Origin: Candidatus Magasanikiibacteriota bacterium
GTDB taxonomy: Bacteria > Patescibacteriota > Patescibacteriia > Magasanikbacterales > GWA2-37-8
Assembly (NCBI GenBank): GCA_023246715.1
Contig: JAHFHZ010000004.1
Coordinates: 1 to 50,471 of the forward strand
Length of the DNA: 50,471 nt
Direction of reading: 5' to 3'
In this document: positions 20,900-50,027 of the stretch, piece by piece
Position numbering within the stretch: the first letter of the stretch is position 1
Layout: the number at the start of each line of letters is the position of its first letter
Translations under genes and position numbers: made by a program
The notes under the pieces: model-generated
The model's input: only the letters and a program-made list of their open reading frames with translations
Told to the model about the DNA's origin: nothing
The model's database searches: none

Positions 20900-20972
20900 C
20901 TGGCCCATAGAACGTACTCAAAAACATCGTGGCTGATGCACTCCTTACGTCAGTCTTTTTTTTATAAAAACT

Positions 20973-21401
20973 ATGCCCACAATCAACCAACTCGTGAAAA
21001 AGGGCCGCTTGAGCAAAAGCCAAAAGAGCAAAACTCCAGCGCTCCAGTTTACCGTAGATAACTTGCATCGCAAGACCACCCACTTCCGCAAGGGGACTTC
21101 GTTTAAGCGCGGGGTATGTACCAAGGTATATACCACCACGCCTAAAAAACCGAACTCCGCTTTGCGCAAAGTTGCCAAGGTTCGCCTGAGCAACGGTGTT
21201 GAAGTTATCGCCTATATCCCGGGCGAAGGTCACAACCTGCAAGAACACTCCATCGTGCTGATTCGCGGTGGCCGTGTGAAAGATTTGCCAGGCGTGCGCT
21301 ATCATATTGTGCGCGGGGTCTACGACACTCAGGGCGTGGCCAATCGCCGCCGCGGCCGCAGCTTGTATGGCAACAAACGGCCGAAAGCTGCCAAGAAATA
21401 A
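20973..21401 (+). CDS. rpsL: 30S ribosomal protein S12
   Basis: [29 protein letters not shown]. Confidence 0.99.
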
Positions 21402-21518
21402 CAGTGGCCAGAAAGGCCGCTGTTATCCTGAACCCCGCCAGGCGGGGTGAAGGATCTCTTGGTTAAAACCACGATTCTTAATTCCTTTCCAAATACTTCA
21501 CTAATTCCTAAAAATTGT

Positions 21519-21995
21519 ATGCGCGGAAAACCAGCTGTACGGCGAGTAATTGTGCCCGACCCGAAATACGGTAACGCCCTGCTTGCCAAATTTATCAATC
21601 ACGTCATGGTCGGCGGCAAAAAAACCACGGCCGAAGCGATCGTCTATGGCGCGTTGAAAAAAATCGAAGAAAACACCAAAAAAGATCCAGTAAAAATCTT
21701 TGAAGAAGCCATCAAAACCATTCAACCGCAGCTGGAAGTTCGCTCCCGACGCGTGGGTGGTGCCAACTATCAGGTACCGCTTCCGGTGCGCGGCGAACGC
21801 CAGGTGACTTTGTCATTCCGCTGGATTATCGGCGCGGCCCGGGCCAAGAAAGGCAAGCCGATGGCCGAAAAATTAGCTACCGTCATTTTAGAAAGCCAAC
21901 AGGGTATCGGCGACGCCGTGAAAAAACGCGACGACGTACACCGTATGGCCGAGGCCAACAAAGCCTTCGCGCACTTCGCTCGCTTCGCCCACTAA
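21519..21995 (+). CDS. rpsG: 30S ribosomal protein S7
   Basis: PDPKY, SRRVGGANYQVP, HRMAEANKAFAH. Confidence 0.98.
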   Translation: MRGKPAVRRVIVPDPKYGNALLAKFINHVMVGGKKTTAEAIVYGALKKIEENTKKDPVKIFEEAIKTIQPQLEVRSRRVGGANYQVPLPVRGERQVTLSFRWIIGAARAKKGKPMAEKLATVILESQQGIGDAVKKRDDVHRMAEANKAFAHFARFAH

Positions 21996-22024
21996 AACCT
22001 TTTTAGCTTCTTCACATATCGTAT

Positions 22025-24100
22025 ATGCCACGCGAATATTCATTGGAAAAAACCCGCAATATCGGCATCATGGCCCATATTGACGCTGGTAAAACCACCA
22101 CCACCGAACGCGTACTGTTTTATACTGGTAAAAAACATAAGATCGGCGAAGTGCATGAAGGTGAAGCGACCATGGACTGGATGGAACAGGAAAAAGAACG
22201 CGGTATCACGATTACGAGTGCCGCGACCACTTGTTTTTGGAAAGGTTTTCGTATCAACATTATTGATACCCCCGGACACGTGGACTTTACCGTGGAAGTA
22301 GAACGCAGTCTGCGCGTGCTCGATGGTGCCGTGGCGGTCTTTGATAGCTCACAGGGTGTAGAACCGCAATCCGAAACTGTCTGGCATCAGGCCGACAAAT
22401 ACAACGTCCCGCGCGTAGCCTTTGTAAACAAAATGGACAAACTCGGGGCTGATTTTTACATGAGCCTCGCTTCGATTAAAGAACGCTTGTCGACCGAAGC
22501 TTTCCCTGTTCAACTGCCCATCGGTGCCGATAGCACCTTTTCGGGTATCGTGGATGTGATTCTGGAAAAAGCCTTTAATTTCGAAGGCGATAAAGGGCAG
22601 AACATTATTGAAATTCCCGTGCCCGAAGATATGAAAACGCTGCTCGCCGAGCACCGCGCCAAGCTGCTTGAAAAAGTGGCCGAAGCCAGTGATCAGTTGA
22701 TGGAAAAATATCTCAACGCGCAACCCATTTCGATTGACGAAATCAAAACCGCCATTCGTAGCCTGGTAATTCAGGGCAAAATGTATCCTGTTTTGTGCGG
22801 CTCGGCGCTTGCCAATATCGGTGTGCAATTGATGCTCGACGCGGTGGTGGATTACCTGCCGTCGCCAATCGACGTGCCCGAAATGAAAGGCATCAACCCC
22901 GATTCCGAAGAAGAAGAAATTCGCAAACCGAGCGACACCGAACATTTTTCGGCCTTGGCGTTCAAAATTGCCACCGACCCGTTCGTGGGTAAACTAATTT
23001 TTTTCCGCGTCTATTCCGGGTCTGTTTCGGCCGGCAGTTATTTATACAATTCCACTAAAGGCCAAAAAGAACGCATTGGCCGCATCGTGCGTATGCATGC
23101 CAACAGCCGCGAAGACGTTTCGGATGTCTACGCTGGTGAAATTGCCGCTGCCATCGGCTTGAAAGATGTTTCGACCGGTGACACGCTGTGCGACGAAGAT
23201 CATCCGATTGTGCTTGAAAAAATCGTCTTCCCCGAACCGGTTATTTCGGTGGCGATCGAACCAAAAACCAAAGCCGACCAGGAAAAAATCGGTATCGCCA
23301 TGCAGAAGTTGGCCGAAGAAGATCCCACCTTCCGCATTCATACCGACACCGAAACGCTGCAGACCATTATTTCGGGCATGGGCGAGTTACACTTGGATAT
23401 TATCGTTGACCGCATGAAGCGCGAGTTCAAGGTAGAAGCCAATGTCGGCGCCCCGCAGGTAGCGTATAAAGAAACTATTCGCAATTCCGCCGAAGCCGAA
23501 GGCAAGTACATCAAACAATCTGGCGGACGTGGCCAATATGGCCATTGCTGGTTGCGCGTGGAACCGATGGAAGTTGGCCAAGGGTTTGAATTCGTTGACG
23601 AGGTAAAAGGCGGCGTGGTGCCCCATGAATTTTTGCCGGCGATCGAAAAGGGTGTCAAGGAATCGGTCACGCGCGGTATCCAGGCCGGGTATCCGGTGGT
23701 GGATATTAAAGTAACCTGTTTCGATGGTTCGTACCACGAAGTAGACTCTTCGGAAATTGCCTTTAAAATGGCCGCTTCACACGCTTTTCGCGACGCGTGC
23801 CTTAAGGCCAAACCAGTTATTTTAGAACCGGTTATGAAGGTGGAAGTTGTCACCCCCGAAAATTATATGGGCGAAGTGATCGGCGATTTAAACTCCAAGC
23901 GCGGCCAGATTCTGGAAATGACCGATCGCGGCCAAATGAAAGTGGTGAAAGCCACCGTGCCGCTCGCTAGCATGTTTGGCTACGCCACCAGTCTGCGCAG
24001 TATGAGCCAGGGCCGGGCCAGCTATAGCATGGAATTTGAAAAATACGGCGAAACTCCTAACAACGTTGCTCAAAATATCATCTCAGGCAAACAGAAATAA
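22025..24100 (+). CDS. fusA: Elongation factor G
   Basis: [22 protein letters not shown]. Confidence 0.99.
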
Positions 24101-24213: not shown

Positions 24214-24711
24214 ATGTCTTTACAAGCAAGGTCACGACTTGCGGCGCTAGTGTTTGTGGTGTCCTGTTCGGCTGTCTCACAACAGGTTGCTCCAGACAAC
24301 GCGCTCGATTCCGGCCAGCTAGGGAGCCCAACCTACCCCCACGGGCTCAATACCAGCAACTTCCAAAATCCTGGATCGGTTGATTGTGAGACGCTCGAAG
24401 GTGTTTCTGGTCGCTACTTCCGTCTGTTTGCGAACAGGTTGCCTGGCCAGCCCCGCCAGGTTTTGGTTCAGTGCAGGGACGGGGTGAAGCTCTTGGGATA
24501 CTGTGAAGGCTCCATGAATGTAGACACTTCCAATGTGGAAGTCGTCGAAAAGCACTACTTTGGCGGGTACAATGGCCGGCCAGCCGGTGCAGTTAAAACC
24601 CAGGATGCCAATGGCAACCAGGTGGTCAGTGCGCGAGGGGCTGACTATGTGGTAAGCCCAGGCAGCCCCGAGGTGGTACAGCTCAGCATGATCTGCACTA
24701 ATCGCAGCTGA
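24214..24711 (+). CDS. Cassette between fusA and tuf: secreted/lipoprotein
   Basis: Promoter TTGACA-17-TAGGAA (24157-24185); AAAGGAG SD; RLAALVFVVS|C; four further Cys. Confidence 0.72.
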   Translation: MSLQARSRLAALVFVVSCSAVSQQVAPDNALDSGQLGSPTYPHGLNTSNFQNPGSVDCETLEGVSGRYFRLFANRLPGQPRQVLVQCRDGVKLLGYCEGSMNVDTSNVEVVEKHYFGGYNGRPAGAVKTQDANGNQVVSARGADYVVSPGSPEVVQLSMICTNRS

Positions 24712-25821: not shown

Positions 25822-27012
25822 ATGACGGATTTTATCCGCAGCAAACCGCACGTCAACGTCGGTACCATCGGCCACGTTGACCACGGTAAGACCACCACCA
25901 CGGCGGCCATTCTTAAGGTCCTCGCGACCCATGGCCAGACCGCTCAGAATAAAGGTGTCGATGATCTCGACAAGGCCCCCGAATCCAAGGCCCGCGGTAT
26001 CACCATCTCAACCGCGCACGTGGAATATGAAACCGACAAGCGCCACTACGCGCACGTGGACTGCCCGGGACACGCCGATTATGTCAAGAACATGATCACC
26101 GGTGCCGCCCAGATGGACGGAGCCATCTTGGTTGTTTCTGCCGCCGACGGCCCCATGCCGCAGACCCGCGAGCACATTTTGCTTGCTCATCAGGTCGGCG
26201 TAAAATACATCGTCGTCTATCTCAACAAGTGCGACATGGTGACCGACAAAGAATTGATTGATCTGGTTGAAGAAGAAGTACGCGATCTGTTGAAAAAATA
26301 TAAATTCCCTGGCGACCAGGTGCCGGTTATCCGCGGATCTTCGCTCAAAGCGTTGGAAAACCCCAGCGACGAAGCTGCGGCCAAACCGATCTTGGATTTG
26401 ATGAAGGCCGTTGACGAATATATCCCCGAACCGGAACGCGCCATCGATAAACCGTTCTTGATGCCTGTTGAAGACGTTTTCTCGATCGAAGGTCGTGGTA
26501 CCGTAGTTACTGGTCGTATCGAACGCGGCATCATCCACATTAACGATGAAATTTCCATCGTAGGTCTGCGCGAAGAAACCATGAAAACCGTGGTGACCGG
26601 CATTGAAATGTTCAACAAGAGCTTGAAAGAAGGCCAGGCTGGCGACAACGCTGGTATCCTTCTGCGCGGTACCAAAAAAGAAGAAGTAGAACGCGGCATG
26701 GTGCTGGCCAAAACTGGTTCGGTCACCCCGCACACCGAATACGAAGGTGAGATCTACGTGTTGAGCAAAGAAGAAGGTGGCCGTCACAAGCCGTTCTTCA
26801 ATGGCTACAAACCGCAATTCTATATCCGCACTACCGACGTAACTGGCGAAATCGAATTACCGGCCGGAACCGAAATGGTCATGCCTGGTGATACGGTGAG
26901 CGTGAAAGTGAAATTGATCGTACCGGTTGCCTTGGAAGAAAAAATGAACTTCGCCATCCGCGAAGGCGGTCGTACCGTCGGCGCCGGCGTCGTAACCAAA
27001 ATTATTAAGTAA
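25822..27012 (+). CDS. tuf: Elongation factor Tu
   Basis: [21 protein letters not shown]; own promoter TTGCCA-16-TATAAT (25676-25703). Confidence 0.99.
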
Positions 27013-27081
27013 TGAGCAGTCGGGGGGTGCAAGTGCGCCCCCCGATTTTGTTCCTTTAAGAGTTCTTTAGCGTTAAACGAC

Positions 27082-27432
27082 ATGACTACCGATACCAAAA
27101 CCACCGCCCCCAAGAAGAAGGAAGAAAGCCTGAGTCGGATTCGCATCAAAATCCGCGCCTACGACAATCGGATTATCGATCAAGCAACCCGCACTATTGT
27201 GGAAACTGCCGAGCGCCATGAAGCGCGCGTAGTTGGCCCAGTGCCGTTGCCGACCGAGAAGGTGAAATTTACGGTGAATCGTTCTACGTTCGTGCACAAA
27301 GACGCTCGCGAACAATTCGAAATGCGCGTCCACAAACGTTTGATCGACATCGTGAATGCCAGCCCAAAATGCGTGGATGCGCTTATGGGTCTGAATCTGC
27401 CGTCCGGCGTGGACATTGAGATAAAAATGTAA
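27082..27432 (+). CDS. rpsJ: 30S ribosomal protein S10
   Basis: [32 protein letters not shown]. Confidence 0.98.
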
Positions 27433-27456
27433 AAATAGTTGGCCAGAATACCCTTC

Positions 27457-27787
27457 TTGACACAATTTTTCAAAGAGCGTATACTGGTAAAAATTTTATA
27501 GCAACTGGTAATTGCCATCGAAAAAATAAGATCCGCAAAAGGGCGGAAAACATTTCGTAGAAGGCGATTCACCACGGAGGAACAATTCCCTTTGATAAAA
27601 GTTAGCCCTCAAGCATCTTTTAGGCTGTTCCGGATTGAAGGCTAGAAGCACCTGTCTTGGTTCACGGCAAATGTGCCACAAGATAGACGCTTCTAGTTTT
27701 TATTTAGCCGGGAGCTGGCGGAAGCGGGCTAAGCAAGCCAAAGGAATTGTCTACATTTTAGTACCATTCAGATTAGGTTAACCAGGT
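27457..27787 (+). promoter_or_regulatory. Promoter plus structured leader upstream of rplC
   Basis: TTGACA-17-TATACT (27457-27485); stems 27642-27649/27689-27696 and 27652-27659/27679-27686. Confidence 0.55.
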
Positions 27788-28510
27788 ATGAAATTCATTA
27801 TCGGCAAAAAAATGGGCATGACCCAAATTTTCCTTTCAGATGGAAATGTTGTTCCGGTTACCCGGGTGCAGGCTGGCCCGTGTCCAGTGGCGGCAGTGCA
27901 AAAATTATCCGGGCGTGATGCTTGGTCGGTGCAATTAGGATATGGCGAAACCAAAGAATGGCGTTTGAGCAAGTCCGTTGCCGGCCACCTGAAAGGGTTG
28001 GGAGCCGTGCGCGAACTCAAAACCGTAACGCTTGATGAAGCGCCAACCGTTCAACGCGGCGATGTTGTGAATGTAGAGACGTTTGTTCCGGGCGACAGTG
28101 TTTCGGTCATTGGTACCAGCAAGGGCCGAGGTTTTGCTGGCGTAGTTAAACGCCACCATTTCCGCGGTGGCCCGGCTTCGCACGGTCATAAAGACAACTT
28201 GCGCGCTCCGGGGTCTATCGGCGCCGGTGGTGTGCAACGCGTATTCAAAGGCATGCGCATGGCTGGCCGCATGGGTGGCGCCCGCGTGACGGTTAAAAAT
28301 TTAGAAATTGTTGCTGTTAATCCGGAAAGTGACGAGCTGTTAATCAAAGGAGCTATCCCCGGTAGCCGCAATGCTTTGGTGTTAATTAGCGCTCCGGGTG
28401 AATTAAAAGCTGCTCGCCCGAATGCTGCCGCGGAAGTAGCGCCAGTTGCCGAAGCTACCACTGAAAGCACCGCTCCAGCCCAGACAGATACTCCCGACGT
28501 TTCCGCCTAA
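27788..28510 (+). CDS. rplC: 50S ribosomal protein L3
   Basis: GKKMGMTQIF, SKGRGFAG, RAPGSIG. Confidence 0.98.
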   Translation: MKFIIGKKMGMTQIFLSDGNVVPVTRVQAGPCPVAAVQKLSGRDAWSVQLGYGETKEWRLSKSVAGHLKGLGAVRELKTVTLDEAPTVQRGDVVNVETFVPGDSVSVIGTSKGRGFAGVVKRHHFRGGPASHGHKDNLRAPGSIGAGGVQRVFKGMRMAGRMGGARVTVKNLEIVAVNPESDELLIKGAIPGSRNALVLISAPGELKAARPNAAAEVAPVAEATTESTAPAQTDTPDVSA

Positions 28511-28530
28511 ATAGACCTTTTACCGATTTT

Positions 28531-29169
28531 ATGCAAATCAGCGTCTACAATTTAATGGGAGAAGCGAAAGGCACTGCCGAATTGCCCGAAGAAATTTTTA
28601 ATGTTGTTATTAAGCCAGAAGTCGTTCACGAAGTTTTTACCGCGCAAGAGGCCAATGCCCGCCAAAGTTGGGCCGACACCAAAAAACGCGGTGAAGTGAG
28701 CGGTGGCGGCAAAAAACCCTGGCCGCAAAAAGGTACTGGGCGCGCTCGCCATGGTTCTATTCGTTCCCCAATCTGGAAAGGTGGCGGCGTGGCTTTTGGC
28801 CCGCTTTCGGAACGCAATTATTCTACCAAAATTAACCGCAAGAAAAAGCAGCTGGCTTTGAAAATGGTTTTGACCGATAAATTACAAAACAACCAATTAT
28901 GCGTCCTCGAAGATTTTGCCGCGTCCGAAGTTAAAACCAAAACTTTTGTAAAATTCTTGAAGATCGCGCCGTTAAAATCAACTTCGTGGTTGGTGCTTAC
29001 TCCCGGCAAAGACGCCAATGTCTTGCGTATGACCAACAATATTCCGAAGGTAAAAACTGAATTGGCTAAACAGGTGAATGTTTCGGCTTTATTGCAAAAA
29101 CAGGGTTTAATTCTAAGCAAAGCGGCCCTAGCTGAAATTGTGGCGCTCTGCATTAAGCCCGCTGTTTAA
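28531..29169 (+). CDS. rplD: 50S ribosomal protein L4
   Basis: [19 protein letters not shown]. Confidence 0.98.
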
Positions 29170-29179
29170 TCTTACCGCT

Positions 29180-29632
29180 ATGGGATTGCTTGATCGATTT
29201 ACCAAAAAAACTAACCCAAAAGCGCCTGCTACCTGGGCTCGCAAAACTGCTGCTTCCGAACAGTCGGTTGAGGCTGCTCCGGCCAAAGCAGCGCACGATC
29301 ACGAACCAAAAATCAACGATTCTGAAATAAAAGTTCCGAGCAGCCACGGGGCTGGGTATACCACCCTGTTGCGACCGTTGGTTACCGAAAAGGCAGCTCG
29401 CGGCGAAGTGGTTGGTCACTATACCTTTATGGTCAAGCGTTCGGCCAGCAAAAATGAAATTAAACGCGCGATTCAAACGCTCTATGGCGTAAAGGCCCTC
29501 GCGGTGCGAACTCAGAATATGTCCGGTCGCCAGGTACGTTTTGGCCGCAGCCTTGGTCGCCGTAGCGATTATAAAAAAGCAGTGGTCGTTGTCCCGGAAG
29601 GCAAGACCCTTAAATTGCATGAAGGAGTTTAA
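29180..29632 (+). CDS. rplW: 50S ribosomal protein L23 with N-terminal extension
   Basis: [27 protein letters not shown]. Confidence 0.95.
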
Positions 29633-29640
29633 TCACCGTT

Positions 29641-30477
29641 ATGCCGATTAAAGTTTATAAACCAACTAACCCAGGACGCCGCAATTCAAGTGTGGACATG
29701 TTTAGTGATATTACTAAACATCGCCCGGAAAAAAGCCTGATTCAGATGTTGCCGAAGCATTCCGGCCGTAACAATCAGGGCCACATTACTGTCCGTCACC
29801 AGGGCGGCGGCGTGAAACGTTTTTATCGCTTGGTAGATTTTAAACGTCAGCGTTTTGGCCAAGAGGCCAAAGTTGAAGCTGTGGAGTACGACCCGAACCG
29901 TGGCGCTCGTATCGCGCTGATTACCTATACCGATAAGACTAAATCATACATTCTCTGCCCGGAAGGTTTGGCTGTTGGTTCAACGGTTGTATCGTCCGAC
30001 GCGGTCGCTGAAGCAAAAGTTGGTAACCGCATGCCCTTGGAACATATTCCCGCTGGTTTATTTATCCACAATATCGAATTGACCCTTGGTAAAGGCGGCC
30101 AATTGGTGCGCGGCGCTGGTTTATCGGCGCAGCTCATGGGTATTGATGGTAATTACGCCAACGTAAAATTGCCCTCGGGCGAAGTGCGTGCTATTGCCAA
30201 AGAATGCGCGGCGACGATTGGGTTGGTAAGCAACCCCGACTACCGCTTGATCCGTTGGGGTAAGGCTGGTCGTATGCGCAATCGCGGCATCCGCCCGACC
30301 GTTAAAGGTAAGAATATGAACCCGGTTGATCACCCGCACGGTGGTGGTGAAGGCCATAGCCCAATTGGTCAAAAGCGCGGCCCGCAGACTGTCTACGGCA
30401 AATCGGCGCGCGGGGTTAAAACCCGTCAACCCGGCAAGTGGAGTGATAAGTTTATTGTTAAATCGCGACGCGGCTAA
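29641..30477 (+). CDS. rplB: 50S ribosomal protein L2
   Basis: [25 protein letters not shown]. Confidence 0.99.
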
Positions 30478-30495
30478 TTTTAGGAAATACTTTGT

Positions 30496-30819
30496 ATGTC
30501 CAGAAGTTTAAAAAAAGGTCCATATATCGATCCGCGCGTGCTCAAAAAAGTGCAGGCGCTGAAGAAAAGCGGCAAGCATGATCCAATTAAAACCTGGTCT
30601 CGCGCTTGCGTTATTTCGCCCGAGATGGTCGGCGTAACCTTTTTGGTGCATAATGGAAAAAACTTTATTTCCGTGTTAGCCGATGAAAACATGGTCGGGC
30701 ATCGCCTGGGCGAAATGGCACCCACGCGCAAATTTATCCGCCATGGCGGCAAGATGGCCAAAGATCAAGAAGCCGCCGCCGCTCCCAAGCCCGCTGCCGC
30801 ACCGGCTGCTAAAAAATAA
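30496..30819 (+). CDS. rpsS: 30S ribosomal protein S19
   Basis: [23 protein letters not shown]. Confidence 0.98.
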
Positions 30820-30822
30820 TGT

Positions 30823-31206
30823 ATGTCCACTGTAACCGCACAATTGAATTATTTGCGCCAAAGCCCGCGTAAAATGCGCCTCGTGGCCAACGCCATTCGG
30901 GGCAAAAGCGTGGTAAAAGCTCAACAGATTTTGACTGTTCTAAGCAAGCGGGGCGCGTTGCCGTTGTTTAAATTGGTTCGTTCCGCAATCGCTAATGCCG
31001 AACATAATTTTTCGTTAGTCGAAAAAAATTTAGTGATTAAAAGTATTATGGTGGATGGCGGTCCGGTGTTAAAACGCTGGATGCCGAAAGCCCACGGCCG
31101 GGCAACCCCGGTGCGCCAACGCACCTGCCATGTCAAGCTTGTCTTGGGTGAAAAGGTCTTCAAGTCTTCTGCTAAAGAAGCGGCTGCGCCGGAAGCGGCC
31201 AAATAA
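30823..31206 (+). CDS. rplV: 50S ribosomal protein L22
   Basis: SPRKMRLVA..IRGK, SAIANAEHN. Confidence 0.98.
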   Translation: MSTVTAQLNYLRQSPRKMRLVANAIRGKSVVKAQQILTVLSKRGALPLFKLVRSAIANAEHNFSLVEKNLVIKSIMVDGGPVLKRWMPKAHGRATPVRQRTCHVKLVLGEKVFKSSAKEAAAPEAAK

Positions 31207-31217
31207 CCTGATTTTGT

Positions 31218-31925: not shown

Positions 31926-31940
31926 ATGTATTGCTGAAGT

Positions 31941-32357: not shown

Positions 32358-32366
32358 ACCGTTCGT

Positions 32367-32558: not shown

Positions 32559-32572
32559 TTTTGGATCATTAT

Positions 32573-39708: not shown

Positions 39709-40383
39709 ATGAAAAAAATTATTATCCTGTTTGGGCCGCCCGGCAGCGGCAAAGGAACTCAGGCCAAACGTATCGCCGAAAGTTTTGGTTACCGGCACAT
39801 ATCGACCGGTGATTTATTACGCGCGCTTTCGGCTGCAGGCACTGTTGACGAGCAGGAACAAAAAGCCCTGGTGGCAATGCAGGGTGGTGCCTTGGTGCCT
39901 GATTGGTTAATTTATAAACTGGCCTTCCAGGCTATTACCGAATCGCTCCAAGCGGGTCAGGGTGTGGTACTCGACGGCGCTATCCGCAACACCGCTCAGG
40001 CCGAACACTATCAGGAATTTTTTAAGCAGCGGGGCGTGGCAGCAGAAGTAGTAGCCATCGAAATCGCCCTCCCCGATGAATTATCGCTTGAACGCCTCAG
40101 CACCCGCCGTGTCTGCGCCGCGTGCGGCGAAATCGTGCCCCTCACCGGCCCTGCTGCCCCGGCCAGCTGCCCCAAATGTGGCGGTAAACTGGTGGCCCGC
40201 GCCGACGACAATCAAGAAGTTGTCCGTAAACGAATTGAACTGCAAGGCAACCAGTCTCTTGCTCCCATCCGGGCTTTTTACCAGGGCCAGGGAACACTCA
40301 AAATTATTAACGGTAACCAATCTATCGCGGCAGTGGCCGAGGAAACAAGTCGTATTTTAAACGCTTCCGAGTATGTTGATTAA
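39709..40383 (+). CDS. adk: Adenylate kinase (zinc-lid type)
   Basis: GPPGSGKGTQA, HISTGDLLR, CAAC..CPKC, RADD. Confidence 0.96.
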   Translation: MKKIIILFGPPGSGKGTQAKRIAESFGYRHISTGDLLRALSAAGTVDEQEQKALVAMQGGALVPDWLIYKLAFQAITESLQAGQGVVLDGAIRNTAQAEHYQEFFKQRGVAAEVVAIEIALPDELSLERLSTRRVCAACGEIVPLTGPAAPASCPKCGGKLVARADDNQEVVRKRIELQGNQSLAPIRAFYQGQGTLKIINGNQSIAAVAEETSRILNASEYVD

Positions 40384-41239
40384 AACTCCCGCCGAATTGG
40401 CTCAGATCAAAAAAGGCGGCCATCTCATGGGTATAATCCTTTCCGAGCTGTATCGGAGTGCGCGCCCGGGAGTTTCAACCTGGGACGTTGACAAAGAGGC
40501 CGAAGCAAAAATTATTGCTTCTGGCGGGACGCCCGCGTTCAAGGGTTACACCACTCGGGTAAGCGACACGCCATTTCCTTCGACAATTTGCGCTTCGGTA
40601 AATACCGACTTGGTGCACGCCATTGCCCGCAAAGAAGTGAAGCTCAAAAAAGGCGATATTTTTAGCATTGATATCGGCATGGAATGGCCATTTAAAAAAG
40701 AAACCAAAAACAAAGAAAAAGGAAAAAAGTTAACCGGTCACCCCGGAGCCTCTCGCGGGTATTTTACTGATACCGCCGTAACATTTGCTTTGGGCGAAGT
40801 TCCTGCTCCGGTAAAAAAACTGCTCGCCGTTACCAAGCAAGCCTTAGAAGAGGGGATTAAAGCCGCCAAACCAGGCAACAGCGTGGCCGCTATTGGTAAA
40901 GCCGTAGAAAGCTACGTCCGCTCGCAAGGCAATTATGGTATTGTTCGCGATCTGGTGGGGCACGGCGTGGGCCATGCCGTGCACGAAGATCCCCATATCC
41001 CCAATTATTACGATCCAGCTTTGGAAAAAATTATCCTTAAGCCCGGCATGGTTATCGCCATCGAACCAATGATCTCGCTCTCGAATGAATACCGCGTGCA
41101 AACCAAACCAGATGGCTGGACGATCGAAATGGTTGACCAGTCGCTCTGCGCGCATTTTGAGCATACCCTGATTATTACCTCGCGCGGCAACACGGTGGTT
41201 ACGCGCCGCCCCGGCGAAGACAAAGAAGTGTTTTGGTAA
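40373..41239 (+). CDS. map: Methionine aminopeptidase type I
   Basis: ICASVN..VH, IDIG, DTA, GHGVG..HEDP, AIEPM, AHFEHT. Confidence 0.96.
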   Translation: MLIKTPAELAQIKKGGHLMGIILSELYRSARPGVSTWDVDKEAEAKIIASGGTPAFKGYTTRVSDTPFPSTICASVNTDLVHAIARKEVKLKKGDIFSIDIGMEWPFKKETKNKEKGKKLTGHPGASRGYFTDTAVTFALGEVPAPVKKLLAVTKQALEEGIKAAKPGNSVAAIGKAVESYVRSQGNYGIVRDLVGHGVGHAVHEDPHIPNYYDPALEKIILKPGMVIAIEPMISLSNEYRVQTKPDGWTIEMVDQSLCAHFEHTLIITSRGNTVVTRRPGEDKEVFW

Positions 41240-41243
41240 CGCT

Positions 41244-41651
41244 ATGAAAATTTTAGCTATTGATTACGGTACACGGCGTTTGGGGCTTGCCTGGAGCGAC
41301 ACAGTGCTCGATGTAGTGTTGCCGCATGGCACCATTGCCGCGCCGCGCCAAGCTTCGGCAACCAAAGCCCAAGGAGTTTTTATTGCGGGGATTACAAAGT
41401 TGTTAACCGAAAGCCCGGTCGATATCATCGTGCTGGGGTTCCCACGCGGCCTGGCTGGCCACGAAAACCAGGCCACGGCTCGGGTGAAAGAATTCGCGTT
41501 TGAATTGCAAAAACACACCAGCGTGCCGATCGAATTTTTTGACGAACGTTTTACCTCGGCGGCCGCCGACGCATTGGGGCCGGGCGTGGCGCGCGATGAA
41601 AAAGCGGCCATGATTATTTTAGAAGGCTACGTAAGCAGTAAAAATCACTAA
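41244..41651 (+). CDS. ruvX: Holliday junction resolvase-like / pre-16S nuclease RuvX (YqgF)
   Basis: ILAIDYGTRRLGLA, DERFTS, D..AAMIILE. Confidence 0.92.
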   Translation: MKILAIDYGTRRLGLAWSDTVLDVVLPHGTIAAPRQASATKAQGVFIAGITKLLTESPVDIIVLGFPRGLAGHENQATARVKEFAFELQKHTSVPIEFFDERFTSAAADALGPGVARDEKAAMIILEGYVSSKNH

Positions 41652-41653
41652 GT

Positions 41654-42379
41654 ATGTTGAGCGTGGTTTTAGCGCGGCGCGACTGGCGGGAGTATGATCA
41701 GTTAATCACGCTCTACACGCGCGAAACCGGCCGTCGGCAAACTGTGGCGCGCGGCGTTAAAAAAATAACCAGCAAGAACGCCACCCACCTGGACGTCCCC
41801 GGCATAGTGGAAGCAGACATACTCCCGGGCAAAGAAGTTGATTATCTGCTCGCGGTGCAGCCGGTAGATTCGTTTATCCGCCTGGCCGGTGATTGGCGAC
41901 GGCTCTGCGTGTGGAATTTTGCCCGCCGCCTGGTGGAGCAGTTAGTGCGTGAAAGCGCCGAAGATCACGCGCTCTTTGAGCTCCTCGTTTCGTTCGGGGT
42001 ATATCTAAACACAGCGGAGCAAATTTTGCTGAGCGCGGCCGATAGTTTCACGCTTAAACTATTGGCGCGATTGGGTTTTTCCCCTGAGCTTGAAAATTGC
42101 GCGGCCTGTGGCGGTAAACTGGTGGGGGAGCGATTAGTGTTTGTTCCCTCGCTTGGTGGTCTGGCTCACTGGGGTTGCCTCCCCGCCAACACCGGGACGC
42201 CGCTTGGCTCAATCCCGTTTTCAGAGGCTCAGGCGCAACAACTGCGCGAATTGCTCACGCACAGTTGGGCGAAATGTGTTGCCAGGTCACATTGCCCCGA
42301 GGTGCGCCAGGCAATTAGTAGTTTTTTGGCTTATCATAGCGAAAAAAAGAATATTTTATTTCAATGGCCAACAGAATAA
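41654..42379 (+). CDS. recO: DNA repair protein RecO
   Basis: REYD..ITLYTRETG..ARGVKK; LGFSPELENCAACG. Confidence 0.9.
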   Translation: MLSVVLARRDWREYDQLITLYTRETGRRQTVARGVKKITSKNATHLDVPGIVEADILPGKEVDYLLAVQPVDSFIRLAGDWRRLCVWNFARRLVEQLVRESAEDHALFELLVSFGVYLNTAEQILLSAADSFTLKLLARLGFSPELENCAACGGKLVGERLVFVPSLGGLAHWGCLPANTGTPLGSIPFSEAQAQQLRELLTHSWAKCVARSHCPEVRQAISSFLAYHSEKKNILFQWPTE

Positions 42380-42444
42380 ATTTGTGGAGTTCGCTGCGTA
42401 ATGTTATGCTGATTTTTTAGGGTAGTTCAATTATTGTGCCACGT

Positions 42445-43737
42445 ATGAACGTATCTATTTCGGAGTTTAAAGATTATGTCGGGCAAGCAGTTACTGTTTC
42501 CGGCTGGTTATACAACAAACGCTCGTCCGGACCGATCGCTTTTTTGGAGCTGCGCGACGGCAGTGGTTGGACGCAGGCCGTGGCCGTGCAAAAGTCCCTA
42601 TCACCCGAAGTGTGGTCCGCGGTGGAGCAGGTAACGCAGGAATCGTCGGTAGTGGTCACCGGCACGATTTCTAAGCATCCCAAAAAAGAAAATATTTTTG
42701 AGCTACAGGTTGCTGATCTGCGCATTTTGCAGCTAGCCACCGAATACCCGATCGCCAAAAAAGATCATGGCCCGGATTTTCTGATGGATAATCGCCACCT
42801 CTGGCTACGCAGCCGCAAGCAGTGGGCAATTCTGCGTTTGCGCGACTCGATCATCATGGCGATTAACATATATTTGCACCAGGAGCGGTTTATTAAAATT
42901 GACTCCCCGATTTTTACGCCCAACGCCTGCGAAGGCACCACCACGTTGTTCTCGGTACCGTATTTTGATTTAGGAACCGCTTACTTGTCTCAATCTGGTC
43001 AATTATATATCGAAGCGGCTATTGCCTCGGTAGGGCGTTGTTACGATTTTGGCCCTGTCTTTCGCGCGGAAAAAAGTAAAACCAAACGCCACTTGACTGA
43101 ATTTTGGATGATGGACGCCGAAGCAGCTTTTGTGGAGCATGCCGGCAACCTGGCACTGCAGGAAGGCCTAGTGCGTTTTATCGTGCGCTATTGCCTGGAA
43201 CATTGTCTGGAAGAATTAACGATTCTGGAGCGAGATGTTGAAAAATTAAAATTGGCCGATAATCCGTTTACCCGCTACGGCTACGACGAAGCGATTAAAA
43301 AATTAAATGAACTTGGTTCGGATATTAAGTACGGCGAAGATCTGGGCAATGATGATGAAGGACTCTTGACCAAAGACAGCACCGTGCCGGTGTTTATCGA
43401 AAAGTGGCCCAAAGGCATCAAACCGTTTTACATGAAGCGTGATCCGAACAATCCCGAATTGGTTTTGAATGATGACTTAATCGCCACCGACGGTGGAGGA
43501 GAATTAATCGGCGGCAGCCAGCGCGAGGAAAATGTTGATTTGCTGATCGCCCGGATGAAAGACGAAGGGTTAAATCAGGCGGACTATGAATGGTATTTGG
43601 ATACCCGTCGGTTTGGCAGCGTGCCGCATTCCGGATTTGGTATCGGGCTTGAGCGCACCGTGCGTTGGATCGCTGGGGTGGAGCATATTCGGGAATGTAT
43701 CCCGTTCCCGCGCACGATCGGGCGCTTGCGGCCGTAA
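42445..43737 (+). CDS. asnS: Asparagine--tRNA ligase
   Basis: FLELRDGSG, YLSQSGQLY, FRAEKSKTKRHLTEF, PHSGFGIGLER. Confidence 0.95.
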   Translation: MNVSISEFKDYVGQAVTVSGWLYNKRSSGPIAFLELRDGSGWTQAVAVQKSLSPEVWSAVEQVTQESSVVVTGTISKHPKKENIFELQVADLRILQLATEYPIAKKDHGPDFLMDNRHLWLRSRKQWAILRLRDSIIMAINIYLHQERFIKIDSPIFTPNACEGTTTLFSVPYFDLGTAYLSQSGQLYIEAAIASVGRCYDFGPVFRAEKSKTKRHLTEFWMMDAEAAFVEHAGNLALQEGLVRFIVRYCLEHCLEELTILERDVEKLKLADNPFTRYGYDEAIKKLNELGSDIKYGEDLGNDDEGLLTKDSTVPVFIEKWPKGIKPFYMKRDPNNPELVLNDDLIATDGGGELIGGSQREENVDLLIARMKDEGLNQADYEWYLDTRRFGSVPHSGFGIGLERTVRWIAGVEHIRECIPFPRTIGRLRP

Positions 43738-44207: not shown

Positions 44208-44750
44208 ATGTCCAGAACGCCTGCTCTGTATTGTGCCTTCGCCTGCCTGCTGGCTGTGCCCGCTTGCGTCGCCCCTGGCTTCGTCGGCATCGAGCGTGCT
44301 GCGGCCGCGCAGGCCCAGAGTGAGCCGCGGCTCACCAGCTACCTGCCCGGTATCGATCTGATTGGCACCCCGGCGGCTCAGCGGCCGCTGCCGATGGTCG
44401 AGGAGGTGGTGGAGACCGTGCCCGATGAGGCGATCGGCGGCATGAACCACCGCGAGCGCCTGGTGCTTCGGGGCCGTTGCGAGACCATCCTCGGCGCGGG
44501 CGGCCAGCGCTTCTTCATCGTCATCAGCCACGACGGCTCTCCCGAGGTCCGGCCACACTGGAACATCATGTGCGCCGACGGTTACGTCCGGGTCTCGTGC
44601 CCGCCGGGCCAGCAGAGCAGCCTCATGAGCCTGCCCGAAGAGCAGGCCACGCGCCGCTGCGCCAACTTCGAGAACTGGCACTTTATCTTGCCCACCGAGG
44701 GCGAGATCGATTCCGATGGCATCTTCCAGCTCGTCCACGCCTGCCGCTGA
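44208..44750 (+). CDS. GC-rich cassette: secreted Cys-containing protein / possible lipoprotein
   Basis: Promoter TTGACA-17-TAAGCA (44119-44147); AAGGAGG SD; hydrophobic N-terminus LLAVPA|C. Confidence 0.75.
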   Translation: MSRTPALYCAFACLLAVPACVAPGFVGIERAAAAQAQSEPRLTSYLPGIDLIGTPAAQRPLPMVEEVVETVPDEAIGGMNHRERLVLRGRCETILGAGGQRFFIVISHDGSPEVRPHWNIMCADGYVRVSCPPGQQSSLMSLPEEQATRRCANFENWHFILPTEGEIDSDGIFQLVHACR

Positions 44751-45116: not shown

Positions 45117-46202
45117 ATGCGATCCAGATCGTCTCCCCCCAGCCATCTGCTGTCCGCCGCCTTCGGGCTCCTGGCCCTGCTGGCCGCGCCCGGCCTGGCC
45201 GAGGCCAAGCAGATCTTCGTCGGGCCTTACCACGACGTGAGCAGGGCAGTCGTGGACAAGCCGCTCACGGCCAAGGAGAAGCTCGCCAAGTGCGCCAGCG
45301 ACAGCGCCTTCACTCTCGATGACTGCCAGCGGATGTTCCTTGTGCCGTCCGCAGCCACCACGAAGCAAGATGTGGATCTGCAGAAGGCCAAGACCCGAGA
45401 GGAGTCCGCCCGCGCGGCCCAGCTGAAGGCGGCCACCAAGGGCGGGGCCCAGAAGATCGAGGTGAACAACAACGCCACGTCTAACTCCGGCGGGAACAGA
45501 ATTCAGGCGACCTCGATCACCGAGGCAGTCCTGGGCCGCCGCGTCATCGCCTGGACCAACCTCCCGCGCTACGGCATGGGCCTCTTCGTTCCGGTGCGCT
45601 TCGAGCTCCGCAACGACGGGAACGACGCCCGCCAGGAGGCGATCGCAGTCGGCGTGGGCGTCGAGGCCCACGGCGGCATCTTCAGTGTGATGGAGAGGAG
45701 CGTCGTGTTCGCGTGGTATGGCGAGTTTGCCTGGCTGCGCGGCTCCCAGCTTACGGTCTCGGCGTTCGACGCCGCGACCTCCACGGTCAGCAGAATCACG
45801 GGCGGCACGAAGGCCGACCACCTCACCGTCTCCTTCGGTCTGGATCTGCTCGCCGGCAAGCTCGTCGGCGCCAAGCTGGGCTACGTCTACGACTACCGCG
45901 CCTCCTCTGTCGATGGCCCCGACGAGAACCTGCGCGGCATCCCCTCGACCGGGTCTCACGGAATGCGTGCGGCCCTGCGGATCGTTCCGTTCGGTTGGGG
46001 GCACCAGATATCCTTCGATCTATTCAACTGGAAGGAGACCTTCTACCCCACCAACCCCGACAACCCCGCCTACATCAACTACCAGGCGACCCCGGAGCAG
46101 CCCGCGATGAAGGCGACGGCCGTGCTCCCGAACGGGCCGCTCGTGACCACGAACTTTTTCAAGGTCATGATGACCTACCGACAGGACTTCAACTTCCTGT
46201 AG
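45117..46202 (+). CDS. GC-rich cassette: signal-peptide protein with probable C-terminal outer-membrane beta-barrel
   Basis: GAGGAGGT SD; signal peptide ending GLAEA|K; alternating amphipathic strands; terminal TYRQDFNFL. Confidence 0.7.
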   Translation: MRSRSSPPSHLLSAAFGLLALLAAPGLAEAKQIFVGPYHDVSRAVVDKPLTAKEKLAKCASDSAFTLDDCQRMFLVPSAATTKQDVDLQKAKTREESARAAQLKAATKGGAQKIEVNNNATSNSGGNRIQATSITEAVLGRRVIAWTNLPRYGMGLFVPVRFELRNDGNDARQEAIAVGVGVEAHGGIFSVMERSVVFAWYGEFAWLRGSQLTVSAFDAATSTVSRITGGTKADHLTVSFGLDLLAGKLVGAKLGYVYDYRASSVDGPDENLRGIPSTGSHGMRAALRIVPFGWGHQISFDLFNWKETFYPTNPDNPAYINYQATPEQPAMKATAVLPNGPLVTTNFFKVMMTYRQDFNFL

Positions 46203-47979: not shown

Positions 47980-48636
47980 ATGTGTAACCGACGCAACCTG
48001 CTCCAAGCAATCGGCCTGCTGCCTTTTGCGCCCCTTGTCTCGGGGTGTCAGCAACTCTTCGGCGAGGGCGCGGCAGATCGCGGGCCCAACTCCCCGCCCG
48101 CCCCCTATGTCGACCGCAAGTTCGGCTGGGTGTGGGACGGCCAGGTCTACCGTGAAGCGTCGGCCAAAGAGATCGATGAGTTCATCGAGCAGATGACGCA
48201 AGAACAGTTCGGCCACGGCCGGCTGTTCATGGCCACCGGCAGCGTCGCTGCCGACCCGATCAAGCTGCCCGACGGCACCTGGCAGCTCCCGGGCACGCTC
48301 ACCGGCGTCCCGTGTCCCATCCCGGACTGTGACGGAACCTTGGTCGACATCAATCAGCGCCAATACTATCCCTTCGGGCGCGATAGCGACGGTGACGACG
48401 ACGGCTCGTCGGCCGTCAACGTCAGATTCGGCCAGTGCAACAGGTGCCTCTCCAGACGGGCGCTCCCCGAGCGCTTCGATGAGAAGGCCGAGCCGCTCAA
48501 GAGCCAACGCGTGAACGGCGCAGTCGTCTACCCACTGCCCGCGCCAATTGGCGGCTGGCTGTTGCCGCGTCTGCCGGCCGGTATGCGCCTGCCCACGCTC
48601 GGCCGCATTCCCATACCGCGGTTCGCCGTTCCCTAG
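47980..48636 (+). CDS. GC-rich cassette: Tat-type lipoprotein, Zn-ribbon family paralog 3
   Basis: Promoter TTGACG-17-TAGGAA (47892-47920); AAGGAG SD; NRRNLL..VSG|C; CPIPDC..CNRC; VYPLPAPIGGWLLPRLP. Confidence 0.8.
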   Translation: MCNRRNLLQAIGLLPFAPLVSGCQQLFGEGAADRGPNSPPAPYVDRKFGWVWDGQVYREASAKEIDEFIEQMTQEQFGHGRLFMATGSVAADPIKLPDGTWQLPGTLTGVPCPIPDCDGTLVDINQRQYYPFGRDSDGDDDGSSAVNVRFGQCNRCLSRRALPERFDEKAEPLKSQRVNGAVVYPLPAPIGGWLLPRLPAGMRLPTLGRIPIPRFAVP

Positions 48637-48759
48637 GCTACCGCGCAGCTCCGCCGCCTGCTGACCTGTCAGCACCTCGGCCCCTTTCCCGAATTGCTCA
48701 ACAAAATTATGAGCAAATCGGGAAAGGGCAACGAAATCAACGCCCTGTGAGGAGGTCCC

Positions 48760-49500
48760 ATGCGCGTCCGTTCCTTGCCTCTCAACCTCGTGCTGCTCGC
48801 CCTTGCGGTCGGCACGCTGCCCGGTTGCAGCTTCATCGACAGACTCGGCCGCGAGATGACCGCCCGCGGCAATCAGGTGAGCCAGCTCTACCAGAAATGC
48901 CAAGAAAAAGTGGAGGGCGCCTGCGATGCCTGGATCCAGTGTTCACAAAGCGGCGTTGACGACTGCCGCAAGCTCGCCTCGGTTCAGCCGATCCTTGGCA
49001 GTCCGCCCGCGGTGAGCGGCCTTTTGCGCTTCGGCAGGGGAGGCGGCGCGGCGGGTGGCAACAACGGCGACGAGTGTGATCCGCCCGGCGAACGCGAGTG
49101 CTCGGCCAGCCCCGACGGCCGCCACCACTTCGTGGGGAAGATCCCCCCCACGTATCGGTTCTTCGTGAAGAAGGACAACACCTGCTGGCGTCAAGCGCTC
49201 GAGGACTGCGAGTACTGCCACACCACCTACATCGGCAACGCTAGCGAGGAGCAGATCACCTTCCCGCAGATCACCTCTGCGGTGGGGCAGGCTGCGGCTG
49301 CCAAGGAAGCCCTCGCCAAAGCGGCCGGAGGGATGCCTGCGCAGGCGCTCCTTGAGCTCCTCGCCGCCGGTAACAAGGCCGGTTTCGAGGCCAAGATCGC
49401 CGAGAGCTACTGGAGCCACATTTTTGAGGCTCAAGACAACGCCGAGACCTCGGCTGACCGCCACGGCCTCACGCCTTGCGTCAAGCACGTCAGCGACTAG
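48760..49500 (+). CDS. GC-rich cassette: Cys-rich lipoprotein with CxxCH motif
   Basis: GAGGAGGT SD; LALAVGTLPG|C; CEYCH. Confidence 0.78.
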   Translation: MRVRSLPLNLVLLALAVGTLPGCSFIDRLGREMTARGNQVSQLYQKCQEKVEGACDAWIQCSQSGVDDCRKLASVQPILGSPPAVSGLLRFGRGGGAAGGNNGDECDPPGERECSASPDGRHHFVGKIPPTYRFFVKKDNTCWRQALEDCEYCHTTYIGNASEEQITFPQITSAVGQAAAAKEALAKAAGGMPAQALLELLAAGNKAGFEAKIAESYWSHIFEAQDNAETSADRHGLTPCVKHVSD

Positions 49501-49667
49501 GCCATCTCAGTCAATCTTGACAAATTGCTCATAGACCCCTACAACGAGGAGCTTTGTCCGACCTGCGGGCCAGGCTCCCTCGCCATATGCCCTTTACAAC
49601 ACCATCCCAAAGTAATCCAAGCGCTGAAAATCTTCAGCTCTAAGACAACTTTGGGAAGGAGGCCACC

Positions 49668-50027
49668 ATGCGTATCGCTGCCAAGCGCACCTTGATTGGT
49701 GTTGCGATCATTCTGGGCCTTGTCGCTTGCGCCTGGGCCGCTCTGAAGAAGCCTGCCGCTGCGCTCCCCACCGAGGTGCGCTGGAGTGATGTGACCCTGC
49801 CACCCTCCACCACCACCTGCGCCAAATACAGGCTGTGGGAGGTTCCGCCCGTGGACCAGGCCGAGCAAGCCGCTGACCCGCGCACGGCCGAGAACCGCTT
49901 CTTTCAGCGCGGTTGCGATGCCCGCCGCGTCACAGATGCTCGAGGCCATCGGGTGTTTCGGCTGCCGGGCGACCCGCTCATCTGCTGCACCAAGAATCCG
50001 GCCCTGGCTGCCGGCCCCAACCCCTAA
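49668..50027 (+). CDS. GC-rich cassette: small exported/membrane-anchored Cys protein
   Basis: Promoter TTGACA-17-TACAAC (49517-49545); AAGGAGG SD; N-terminal hydrophobic segment. Confidence 0.72.
   Translation: MRIAAKRTLIGVAIILGLVACAWAALKKPAAALPTEVRWSDVTLPPSTTTCAKYRLWEVPPVDQAEQAADPRTAENRFFQRGCDARRVTDARGHRVFRLPGDPLICCTKNPALAAGPNP

Follow-up and report, generated by a model that had tools for sequence, protein, structure and literature searches.

The stretch of DNA analysed here, a contig of 50,471 nt that we call the window throughout, carries a housekeeping backbone in the order rpsL-fusA-tuf-S10-spc-secY-adk-map-asnS, broken by short stretches of 58-65% GC that hold accessory genes, hereafter cassettes. 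Backbone genes mostly start at an ATG directly preceded by T and have no Shine-Dalgarno (SD) sequence, whereas many cassettes start behind a strong AGGAGG-type SD. We confirm that this one genome contains two classes of start signal tied to base composition, and we think it probable that a single cell with a single ribosome uses two routes to the start codon.

The window is the entire contig C37 of a metagenome bin (genome G000) of 1,058,102 bases in 44 contigs, estimated to be 92.8% complete. The closest named record to its SecY protein belongs to Candidatus Komeilibacteria (61% identity), with Yanofskybacteria and Staskawiczbacteria at 52-53%; one record at 69% bears a label that we take to be wrong, and the other closer records are labelled only 'bacterium'. 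We treat the organism as a Patescibacteria/Candidate Phyla Radiation (CPR) bacterium from groundwater. All 40 sampled relatives (G001-G040) have genomes of 0.7-1.2 Mb.

Two classes of start signal in one genome

Genes were called with a caller of our own, which made a greedy choice among 5222 open reading frames (ORFs) of at least 50 amino acids (aa) using two in-frame Markov models and returned 889 genes covering 83% of the genome. The GC content at third codon positions (GC3) was bimodal, with a main mode at about 0.52 and a second population at 0.72-0.92. The 879 genes with 20 nt of upstream sequence were divided into 810 native (GC3 <0.66) and 61 high-GC3 genes (GC3 at least 0.70), 8 intermediate ones being set aside; a first in-frame ATG could be scored in 803 and 58 of these, respectively. 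We defined an SD core as at least 4 nt, lying 3-12 nt upstream of the first in-frame ATG.

A T immediately before the first ATG, T(-1), was present in 651/803 native genes compared to 6/58 high-GC3 genes (Fisher p 1e-28). The SD core showed the opposite bias, occurring in 22/803 native and 33/58 high-GC3 genes (Fisher p 3e-29), and about 95% of genes start without SD pairing. In the window alone, 35 of the 41 native first ATGs have T(-1) and none has an SD core, vs. 1 and 7, respectively, of the 12 high-GC3 first ATGs. Most of the window's high-GC3 genes that lack an SD at the first ATG show one at a downstream ATG. Genome-wide, 25/58 high-GC3 genes have no 4-nt core at the first ATG and many of these also acquire one at a downstream start.

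T(-1), found in 81% of native starts, is their sole strong position. No base exceeds 40% at any other upstream position, and upstream adenines were not seen as a Kozak-like mark of native starts, the frequency of A being 0.27-0.39 at positions -3 to -13 (28% at -3). The background is much lower: a T stands in front of 19% of the 4077 ATGs that lie in frame inside genes and of 21% of the 25247 ATGs overall. As a control, the same pipeline applied to 72 non-CPR secY loci (659 ORFs) gave T(-1) in 17% and an SD in 45%. The low background of T and the SD rate in the control indicate that the method itself created neither of the two signals.

The mean duplex energy with the anti-SD was -1.62 kcal/mol for native and -7.47 kcal/mol for high-GC3 starts, with internal control positions at -2.97 and -3.40 kcal/mol; native leaders thus bind the anti-SD worse than random coding sequence does. 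An association between this energy and GC3, which the initial annotation of this DNA had put forward for checking, does exist, but it is weak (Spearman -0.13, p 7e-5, n = 869), since the GC3 values form two classes and no gradient. The region around the start (-30 to +30) is more weakly folded in native genes (mean -7.5 kcal/mol, 250 sampled of 777) than in cassettes (-12.7 kcal/mol, n = 54; p 9e-12), and the GC content upstream of the start is 0.35 and 0.56, respectively.

The initial annotation had described a strict split between SD-less T-ATG starts on the backbone and AGGAGG-led starts on the cassettes. The eight cassette starts and nine native starts that it quoted are all present in the sequence. 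The native ones are rpsL actATG (20973), fusA tatATG (22025), tuf cgtATG (25822), rplC ggtATG (27788), rpsS tgtATG (30496), secY tatATG (36779), adk agtATG (39709) and asnS cgtATG (42445), with rpsJ gacATG (27082) correctly singled out as an exception. The cassette ones are AAGGAGG-cccag-ATG (20192), AAAGGAG-ctacc-ATG (24214), AAGGAGGT-ctttg-ATG (38924), AAGGAGG-cccc-ATG (44208), GAGGAGGT-ctccta-ATG (45117), AAAGGAGG-ctca-ATG (46438), GAGGAGGT-ccc-ATG (48760) and AAGGAGG-ccacc-ATG (49668). The classes are real genome-wide, native genes elsewhere in the genome likewise lacking SDs, and the split does follow foreign-looking composition (GC3 0.70-0.95 vs. about 0.52). The word 'strict' slightly overstates the case, given the 22 native-GC genes with an SD core and the GC3 of 0.58 of the ORF at 24214.

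We also considered avoidance of internal SD motifs as a test for an active anti-SD. The observed/expected ratio of GGAGG in native coding sequence is 0.57 and that of its complement CCTCC is 0.53; since this depletion is strand-symmetric, the test is uninformative. Unlike these two motifs, GGTGG and GGCGG are enriched in native coding sequence compared to synonymous-codon shuffles. The pattern suggests that the GGAGG/CCTCC depletion has a DNA-level cause such as restriction avoidance, rather than one in translation.

The anti-SD tail of the 16S rRNA is intact

The only 16S gene found in G000 (C11:13366-15098, 1391.5 bits) has the 3' end GGATCACCTCCTTTCT (...GGAUCACCUCCUUUCU), with CCUCC intact, and 24 of the 25 16S 3' ends recovered from G000 and its relatives retain the same anti-SD tail. 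The one deviating end, GGACTATCTCCTTATA, belongs to an additional full-length 16S in G023 (L158, G023:C19); the same bin also holds a canonical fragment, and the odd gene may be bin contamination. The G000 gene (L001:1501-3233) is 1733 nt long and contains, close to the 5' end, an insertion of some 105 nt.

The restriction of strong SDs to orphan genes had been taken in the initial annotation as a sign of a different ribosome, on the premise that ribosomal-protein genes usually bear the best SDs of a genome. This premise fails across the whole order, and it also fails in SD-poor lineages such as Bacteroidia, according to the relevant sections of two studies (PMC7797042, PMC9976891). As the cell's own 16S rRNA should be able to pair with AGGAGG, a different ribosome is unnecessary. 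Of the two findings that the initial annotation named as refuting its reading, the first, strong SDs on many native low-GC genes, is not seen here, and the second, an anti-SD on the 16S, is. A weaker version of the proposal, in which the cassettes may have evolved for SD-using translation in another organism, fits their composition; homologue searches with three cassette proteins found no donor organism.

Ribosomal protein bS21 was not found in G000 (92.8% complete), and weak matches to it occur in 16 of 41 genomes, 3 of them above the cut-off. The relative G016 encodes an initiator-type tRNA-Met (L044:3396-3470), so called by eye from its three G-C pairs and 1-72 mismatch, whose anticodon loop CCCAUAA has C33 in place of the usual U33, with A37 present. 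The same 15-mer of this tRNA is found in G005, G014 and G037. G000 carries a tRNA-Ile(UAU). In E. coli, pairing between U(-1) and A37 raises translation, as described in the part of PMC10018350 that deals with this pair.

We propose that native genes would be initiated independently of an SD, from an A/U-rich, G-poor and weakly folded leader in which U(-1) marks the start, most likely by lengthening the codon-anticodon helix to four pairs via A37 of the initiator tRNA. The cassettes, which lack U(-1) and have more structured starts, would be translated through pairing between a strong AGGAGG, 4-7 nt upstream of the start, and the conserved CCUCC tail of the same 16S rRNA.

Both signals recur in relatives

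Relatives were sampled region by region and not as whole genomes. In the rpsL-adk region (about 20 kb) of 20 relatives, 15 from the same family and 5 from other families, T(-1) ranged from 65 to 96% and SD from 0 to 19% in 20/20. Beyond this set, four further CPR loci, including one with the label Komeilibacteria, had T(-1) at 88-89%; four others (labelled Yanofsky-, Staskawicz- and Parcubacteria, plus one unlabelled; 6-10 ORFs each) had T(-1) at 20-50% and no SD. T-ATG without an SD, seen in all 20 of the relatives from the order, is a trait of the lineage.

The second class is also found in relatives. An SD core at the first ATG is present in 2/168 native vs. 7/15 high-GC3 genes in G016, in 0/103 vs. 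3/5 in G023 and in 0/59 vs. 3/6 in G006; in G021, it is present in 5/99 native genes, and no high-GC3 genes were found in about 114 kb. The SD-led high-GC3 genes of relatives, read by eye, resemble purA, a desaturase and a response regulator. The junction 3' of fusA is occupied by a different insert in each of four genomes (names from translations): the ORF at 24214 in the window, a desaturase-like gene in G016, a purF-like gene in G002 and, in G068, a copy of a lipoprotein gene that also occurs in the window. In the literature searched, no paper dealt with the use of SDs or with U(-1) at starts in CPR/Patescibacteria; only PMC9297842 touches on the anti-SD, and its supplementary data on anti-SD detection in each lineage may bear on the question.

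Cassettes are physically joined to native sequence

Each cassette is flanked by native sequence on both sides. We compared Logan contigs from two samples, both of a single study, with positions 36500-50471 of the window; one of these samples, X1, may be the source sample. One X1 contig (38604-39251) runs from AT-rich upstream DNA into a cassette, and another (39251-44078, depth 7.03) runs with zero differences from the cassette interior through adk to asnS. Sample X2 yielded contigs matching 39217-40124, 45784-46783, 47416-47820 and 48908-49666, again with zero differences, which together bridge four cassette junctions. X1 has no contig over 45354-50013, a gap to which we gave no weight.

These data bear directly on the idea that foreign GC-rich pieces were stitched into a CPR contig during assembly or binning. 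Such a chimera might be suspected in a 44-contig metagenome bin, and short repeats common to many organisms of the sample do adjoin some cassettes (depth 196-884 vs. about 7). However, native sequence lies on both sides of every cassette, the junctions are crossed, at genome depth and with no differences, by contigs that were built independently for two samples, and other genera show the same pattern at syntenic junctions. Contigs of two samples crossing the junctions in this way make a chimeric assembly very unlikely, and we give this explanation almost no credence.

The repeat content of the assembly was looked at separately. A MITE-like element (miniature inverted-repeat transposable element) with the terminal inverted repeat AGCTCTGAATTACGAAACTC occurs in the window at 85-97 (-), 38220-38232 (+) and 38316-38328 (-), and at the ends of many G000 contigs. 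With up to 1 mismatch allowed, the 13-mer has 31 hits, and 21 of 59 hits of a looser 11-mer lie within 250 nt of a contig end; the element probably fragments the assembly. As a cassette boundary it is too weak a candidate, being within 300 nt of 6/54 cassettes vs. 41/810 native genes. Nor do cassettes appear to cause contig breaks: 10/54 lie within 1.5 kb of a contig end compared to 124/810 native genes, which is no enrichment.

Anatomy and origin of the cassettes

The cassette class comprises some 55-60 single-ORF accessory genes spread over 23 contigs, mostly coding for orphan secreted proteins or lipoproteins. In the 54 high-GC3 genes of at least 90 aa, the GC content goes up over the last 40 nt or so ahead of the ATG and comes down again 40-80 nt past the stop codon. 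The gap to the previous gene is at least 120 nt in 47/54 cassettes (median 253 nt vs. 69 nt for native genes), the upstream DNA being AT-rich, and a TTGAC box lies at -160 to -25 in 21/47 gapped cassettes vs. 66/304 gapped native genes (about 11% expected by chance). A stricter consensus scanner found one promoter-like site in 43.7-50.5 kb, making the promoter calls tentative. The start consensus is a purine-rich SD at -13 to -6, spaced 4-7 nt from the ATG, with C predominating at -2 (61%) and -1 (63%); the 3' side usually consists of a C-rich tail followed by a hairpin with a T-run. Third codon positions are C in 0.49 and G in 0.35 of cases, vs. 0.26 and 0.26 in native genes. Cassette proteins are shorter (median 194 vs. 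290 aa) and, by simple heuristics, more often have signal-peptide-like N-termini (52 vs. 20%, p 6e-7) and lipoboxes (24 vs. 1%, p 6e-11); our signal-peptide and promoter assignments are all heuristic.

We favour horizontal acquisition from GC-rich, SD-using bacteria as the source of the cassettes, judging by their composition, patchiness, hot spots, the tRNA at an array edge and the imported-looking metabolic genes of relatives. Strong deletion pressure would trim each insert to one selected ORF. Two specific vehicles were considered and rejected: PHROG matches to 0/10 window cassettes speak against a prophage, and for an integron array, 43.7-50.5 kb, searched without a dedicated attC model, contains no attC-like shared repeat apart from a single pair of 27-nt palindromes, and the window has no integrase. 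The window has no match to Phage_integrase; the genome has two, on C11 and C38.

A number of observations weigh against the two-route reading or against acquisition as the source of the cassettes. The genes and starts come from a simple caller of our own and no benchmarked tool. Within 36500-50471, RNA run X3 (same sample) covers only repeats and the tRNA. Neither an initiator tRNA nor a bS1-like gene was found in the 92.8%-complete G000 assembly; a bS1-like protein of about 370-460 aa is present in 40/40 relatives, vs. only the S1 domain of a 747-aa protein in G000, and its absence here is probably an assembly gap. Only 6/30 cassette proteins reach the Pfam cut-off (fatty-acid hydroxylase, trypsin, DUF3865, DUF4407, DUF4331 and histidine phosphatase). 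The 361-aa protein encoded at 45117-46202 has zero homologues among 5.8 billion proteins and was found in 0/40 relatives, and the 585-aa DUF4407 protein has no homologue at E<=1e-10. For the hydroxylase cassette (5937..6680), the search found 12 homologues with 30-35% identity, including one named Myxococcota.

Three small Cys-rich lipoprotein genes (46438-47082, 47261-47857 and 47980-48636, all on the + strand; GC3 0.73-0.80), the only paralogous set among the cassettes, add to the case against bulk acquisition. A profile of this trio retrieved 25 proteins among 1.84 billion representatives, the placeable ones all falling in the same CPR family; by profile search, the family occurs in 3/240 genomes of the order. 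In a tree, the three window proteins do not cluster: the one encoded at 47980 groups with three metagenome proteins (96/96) and that at 46438 with the G068 group (84/83). Being closer to proteins elsewhere than to each other, the window copies are old paralogues, and that such genes are still at GC3 0.73-0.80 is equally compatible with a state that is maintained and with a donor signature in decay. The cassettes are, in addition, very uniform, with CC before the ATG, C-rich third positions and 3' untranslated regions, one ORF per unit and AT-rich spacers inside the array; bulk transfer from many donors does not predict a uniform class.

These last points lead to the idea, unlikely in our estimation but deserving a full hearing, that SD-led GC-rich genes are a second class endemic to the lineage, the clade maintaining high GC and an SD on surface and secreted genes. 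The SD/anti-SD interaction would then be a separate and possibly conditional channel, with the tail exposed in some states, for instance, as in bS21-lacking Flavobacterium ribosomes. In G011, two copies of the lipoprotein gene lie directly 3' of asnS, as in the window, with GC3 of 0.43 and 0.47, no T(-1), and AGGAGG or AAGGAG upstream. The presence of an SD on these native-GC copies suggests that it is selected in the lineage and not merely inherited from a donor, a point that speaks for the two-route reading as well. This sole family with relatives is confined, where placeable, to the CPR family, its old subfamilies all bearing SDs, and a donor search by DNA context (genome contigs for a single protein, metagenome contigs by alignment) found nothing. 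The strict conservation of an anti-SD that about 95% of genes bypass, the uniformity of the class with its excess of signal peptides and lipoboxes, and the separate gaps and TTGAC boxes described above are likewise in its favour.

On the other side, no known mechanism would keep GC3 as high as 0.8-0.95 in a genome with 49% GC. Within the lipoprotein family, GC3 varies between genera, from 0.43 to 0.80, as amelioration predicts; the G068 copy, directly 3' of fusA and with GTGGAGG upstream, has a GC3 of 0.69 vs. 0.44 for fusA. The content of the same junction differs between genera, some SD-led high-GC3 genes of relatives look like ordinary imported metabolic genes, and bS21 gives no clear sign either way, not being found in G000 and matching weakly in 16/41 genomes.

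A further possibility is that the cassettes are read by the ribosome of another organism, either a GC-rich SD-using host that receives nucleic acid from its epibiont or the host of an element replicating there. Codon use and SDs do resemble those of GC-rich diderm bacteria, and the 72 control loci, most of them proteobacterial, likewise have C at -1, as is typical of cassettes, more often (38%) than any other base. In addition, the 361-aa cassette protein looks similar to outer-membrane beta-barrels, for which a monoderm would have no need: its language-model and structure neighbours are DUF2490, autotransporter beta-domain and MipA/OmpV proteins (Atlas model with a predicted local distance difference test score, pLDDT, of 0.47). 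Such a likeness would be odd for a presumed single-membrane CPR cell, and we take it as a lead only. Against this, the cell's own 16S rRNA can pair with the cassette SDs, the cassettes are placed in AT-rich spacers of native type and in many cases resemble native units in having a TTGAC box and a hairpin/T-run end, and no transfer or mobility genes adjoin them, nor is there an integrase in the window. We know of no precedent for cassettes translated by a host's ribosome, and consider this very improbable.

Weighing these points, we retain the reading of one cell and one ribosome with two routes to the start codon, the cassettes being probable imports from GC-rich, SD-using donors.

Genes and repeats of the window

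Gene names in the rpsL, rpsG and fusA block were taken from translations and the initial annotation rather than from a family search. Native genes rpsL, rpsG (first ATG at 21519) and fusA occupy 20973..24100 (+), with actATG, tgtATG and tatATG, respectively, and no SD. The tuf/S10/spc block up to secY (25822..38053, +) has T(-1) at all first ATGs except that of rpsJ and no SD core, and adk, a map-like gene, two small genes and asnS (39709..43737, +) are five out of five T-ATG without SD. Upstream of this backbone lie a cation-efflux gene, a tRNA synthetase, TGT, a native gene for a 1417-aa protein with YadA-head repeats (10578-14831, +), followed by one for a 763-aa TPR protein, and a UvrD helicase. 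The 1417-aa protein is likely an epibiont surface adhesin.

Among the cassettes, that at 4219..4842 (+, GC3 0.83) lies outside the range covered by the initial annotation; it has the start context caaggaggtagtgATG and, in Pfam, only a weak sub-cut-off match to NifU. The fatty-acid hydroxylase cassette (5937..6680, -, GC3 0.80) starts in the context aaaggacggtgcgccATG, with a weak SD. The cassette at 19346..19789 (-, GC3 0.90; start context ccaggagatcccaATG) encodes a signal peptide with the lipobox LALGAC, and that at 20192..20728 (+, GC3 0.88; SD AAGGAGG at 20180-20186) a Pro/Ala-rich protein with a C-terminal hydrophobic helix. The ORF with native-like GC3 at the hot spot 3' of fusA (24214..24711, +), which was missed by our caller, has AAAGGAG at 24202-24208, TTGACA at 24158-24163 and a signal peptide.

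The cassette between secY and adk (38924..39514, +, GC3 0.90) has its SD, AAGGAGGT, at 38911-38918 and a TTGACA at 38738-38743; GC goes up at about 38850 and down at about 39585. Nearby, a 32-codon ORF (38176-38274, +) with a strong SD (GAGGAGG-cctggt-ATG) enters the MITE-like element and stops at a hairpin; it may be a chance ORF or a small peptide gene.

In the 44-50 kb array, the cassette at 44208..44750 (+, GC3 0.82; SD AAGGAGG at 44197-44203) encodes a lipoprotein-like N-terminus. It is flanked by a 27-nt palindromic repeat, CTGGATTCCCGCCTGCGCGGGAATGAC, at 44066-44092 and 44944-44970, also present at 38571-38652. In metagenome contigs this repeat has a depth of 378-884 compared to about 7 for the genome, and in contigs of other organisms it is found with short variable spacers. 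The gene for the 361-aa secreted orphan (45117..46202, +, GC3 0.84) has its SD, GAGGAGGT, at 45103-45110. The lipoprotein trio follows, its SDs being, in order, AAAGGAGG, AGGAAGG (weak) and AAGGAG, with AT-rich spacers containing hairpins between the genes. The AlphaFold model of the trio (pLDDT 65.4) had no match in the PDB at E<=0.001. Two stretches of the trio, 46968-47028 and 47740-47800, share 89% nucleotide identity over 61 nt, with 20 bases identical, far above the overall similarity; this points to gene conversion or to a strongly constrained C-terminal motif, YPLPAGGWFMPRLP. Two more cassettes, at 48760-49500 (+, GC3 0.82; SD GAGGAGGT at 48749-48756; lipoprotein signal) and 49668-50027 (+, GC3 0.75; SD AAGGAGG at 49656-49662), complete the array, whose outer edge is marked by a tRNA-Leu(CAA) gene (50382..50466, -).

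Implications

With about 800 SD-less genes and some 55-60 genes with near-consensus SDs in the same cell, this genome is a natural experiment that bears on why the anti-SD persists. If U(-1) at 81% of starts acts as proposed, it would make the quadruplet with A37 the primary start-selection signal. In practical terms, gene callers that seek SDs would mis-set starts in this clade, where T-ATG can place them, and the combination of high GC3 and an SD flags the accessory secretome of host-dependent bacteria, the proteins most likely to touch the host.

A bolder interpretation, which we hold to be doubtful, is that housekeeping translation has given up the SD, which would survive as a channel reserved for a mobile secretome that evolves fast. 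SD and GC-rich coding would then be the maintained tag of a pool of surface proteins circulating in the clade, the core genes being read by a four-base U-AUG interaction with a C33/A37 initiator tRNA. Were this so, the few native competitors for the anti-SD would leave SD-led mRNAs strongly favoured, or switchable through conditional exposure of the tail.

Comparison with known systems

The cassettes share with genomic islands an atypical GC3, a patchy distribution, a tRNA at the array edge, recurrent hot spots and orphan secreted proteins, but they differ in being single-ORF units with tight boundaries, no nearby integrase or transfer gene and no donor found. Like integron cassettes, they hold a single ORF each within compact boundaries, form arrays of orphan genes unrelated to one another and have a short leader with its own SD. 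Unlike integron cassettes, they lack an attC-like repeat and, in the window, an integrase, are spread over 23 contigs, and have gaps of at least 120 nt in 47/54 cases, often with a TTGAC box.

The reduced CPR ribosomes described in PMC9297842 are similar as regards the small genome and the insertion in the 16S rRNA, and the anti-SD is discussed there. The sections covering it report loss of the motif in part of the Parcubacteria and leave start contexts untreated; here, the motif is kept and it is the native genes that are SD-less.

The closest parallel for a conserved tail beside SD-less genes is provided by the Bacteroidia. In Flavobacterium johnsoniae, as set out in the pertinent parts of PMC7797042, PMC9976891, PMC13000453 and PMC13000457, genes are SD-less and the canonical CCUCC is conserved but sequestered. 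Nearly all genes without an SD, a retained CCUCC, a small strong-SD minority and G-poor leaders are common to both. However, the start is marked by upstream adenines in Bacteroidia, according to the relevant part of PMC13000457, compared to U(-1) at 81% here. The single strong-SD gene described for F. johnsoniae is rpsU, as opposed to some 55-60 GC-rich accessory genes in our case. The Bacteroidia tail, in the same accounts, is sequestered by bS21, bS18 and bS6, so that ribosomes do not see SDs; the first of these proteins is one that we did not find in G000 and matched weakly in 16/41 genomes.

For the native class, the nearest precedent is the U(-1)AUG/A37 quadruplet, treated in part of PMC10018350 and in the chloroplast work cited there, which has in common with our data a U 5' of the start and, in a relative, an initiator-type tRNA with A37. 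The loop of that tRNA, CCCAUAA, with C33 for U33, departs from the precedent. The quadruplet is also described there as a modest modulator on top of the SD in E. coli, whereas in our case U(-1) dominates the start context throughout an entire order.

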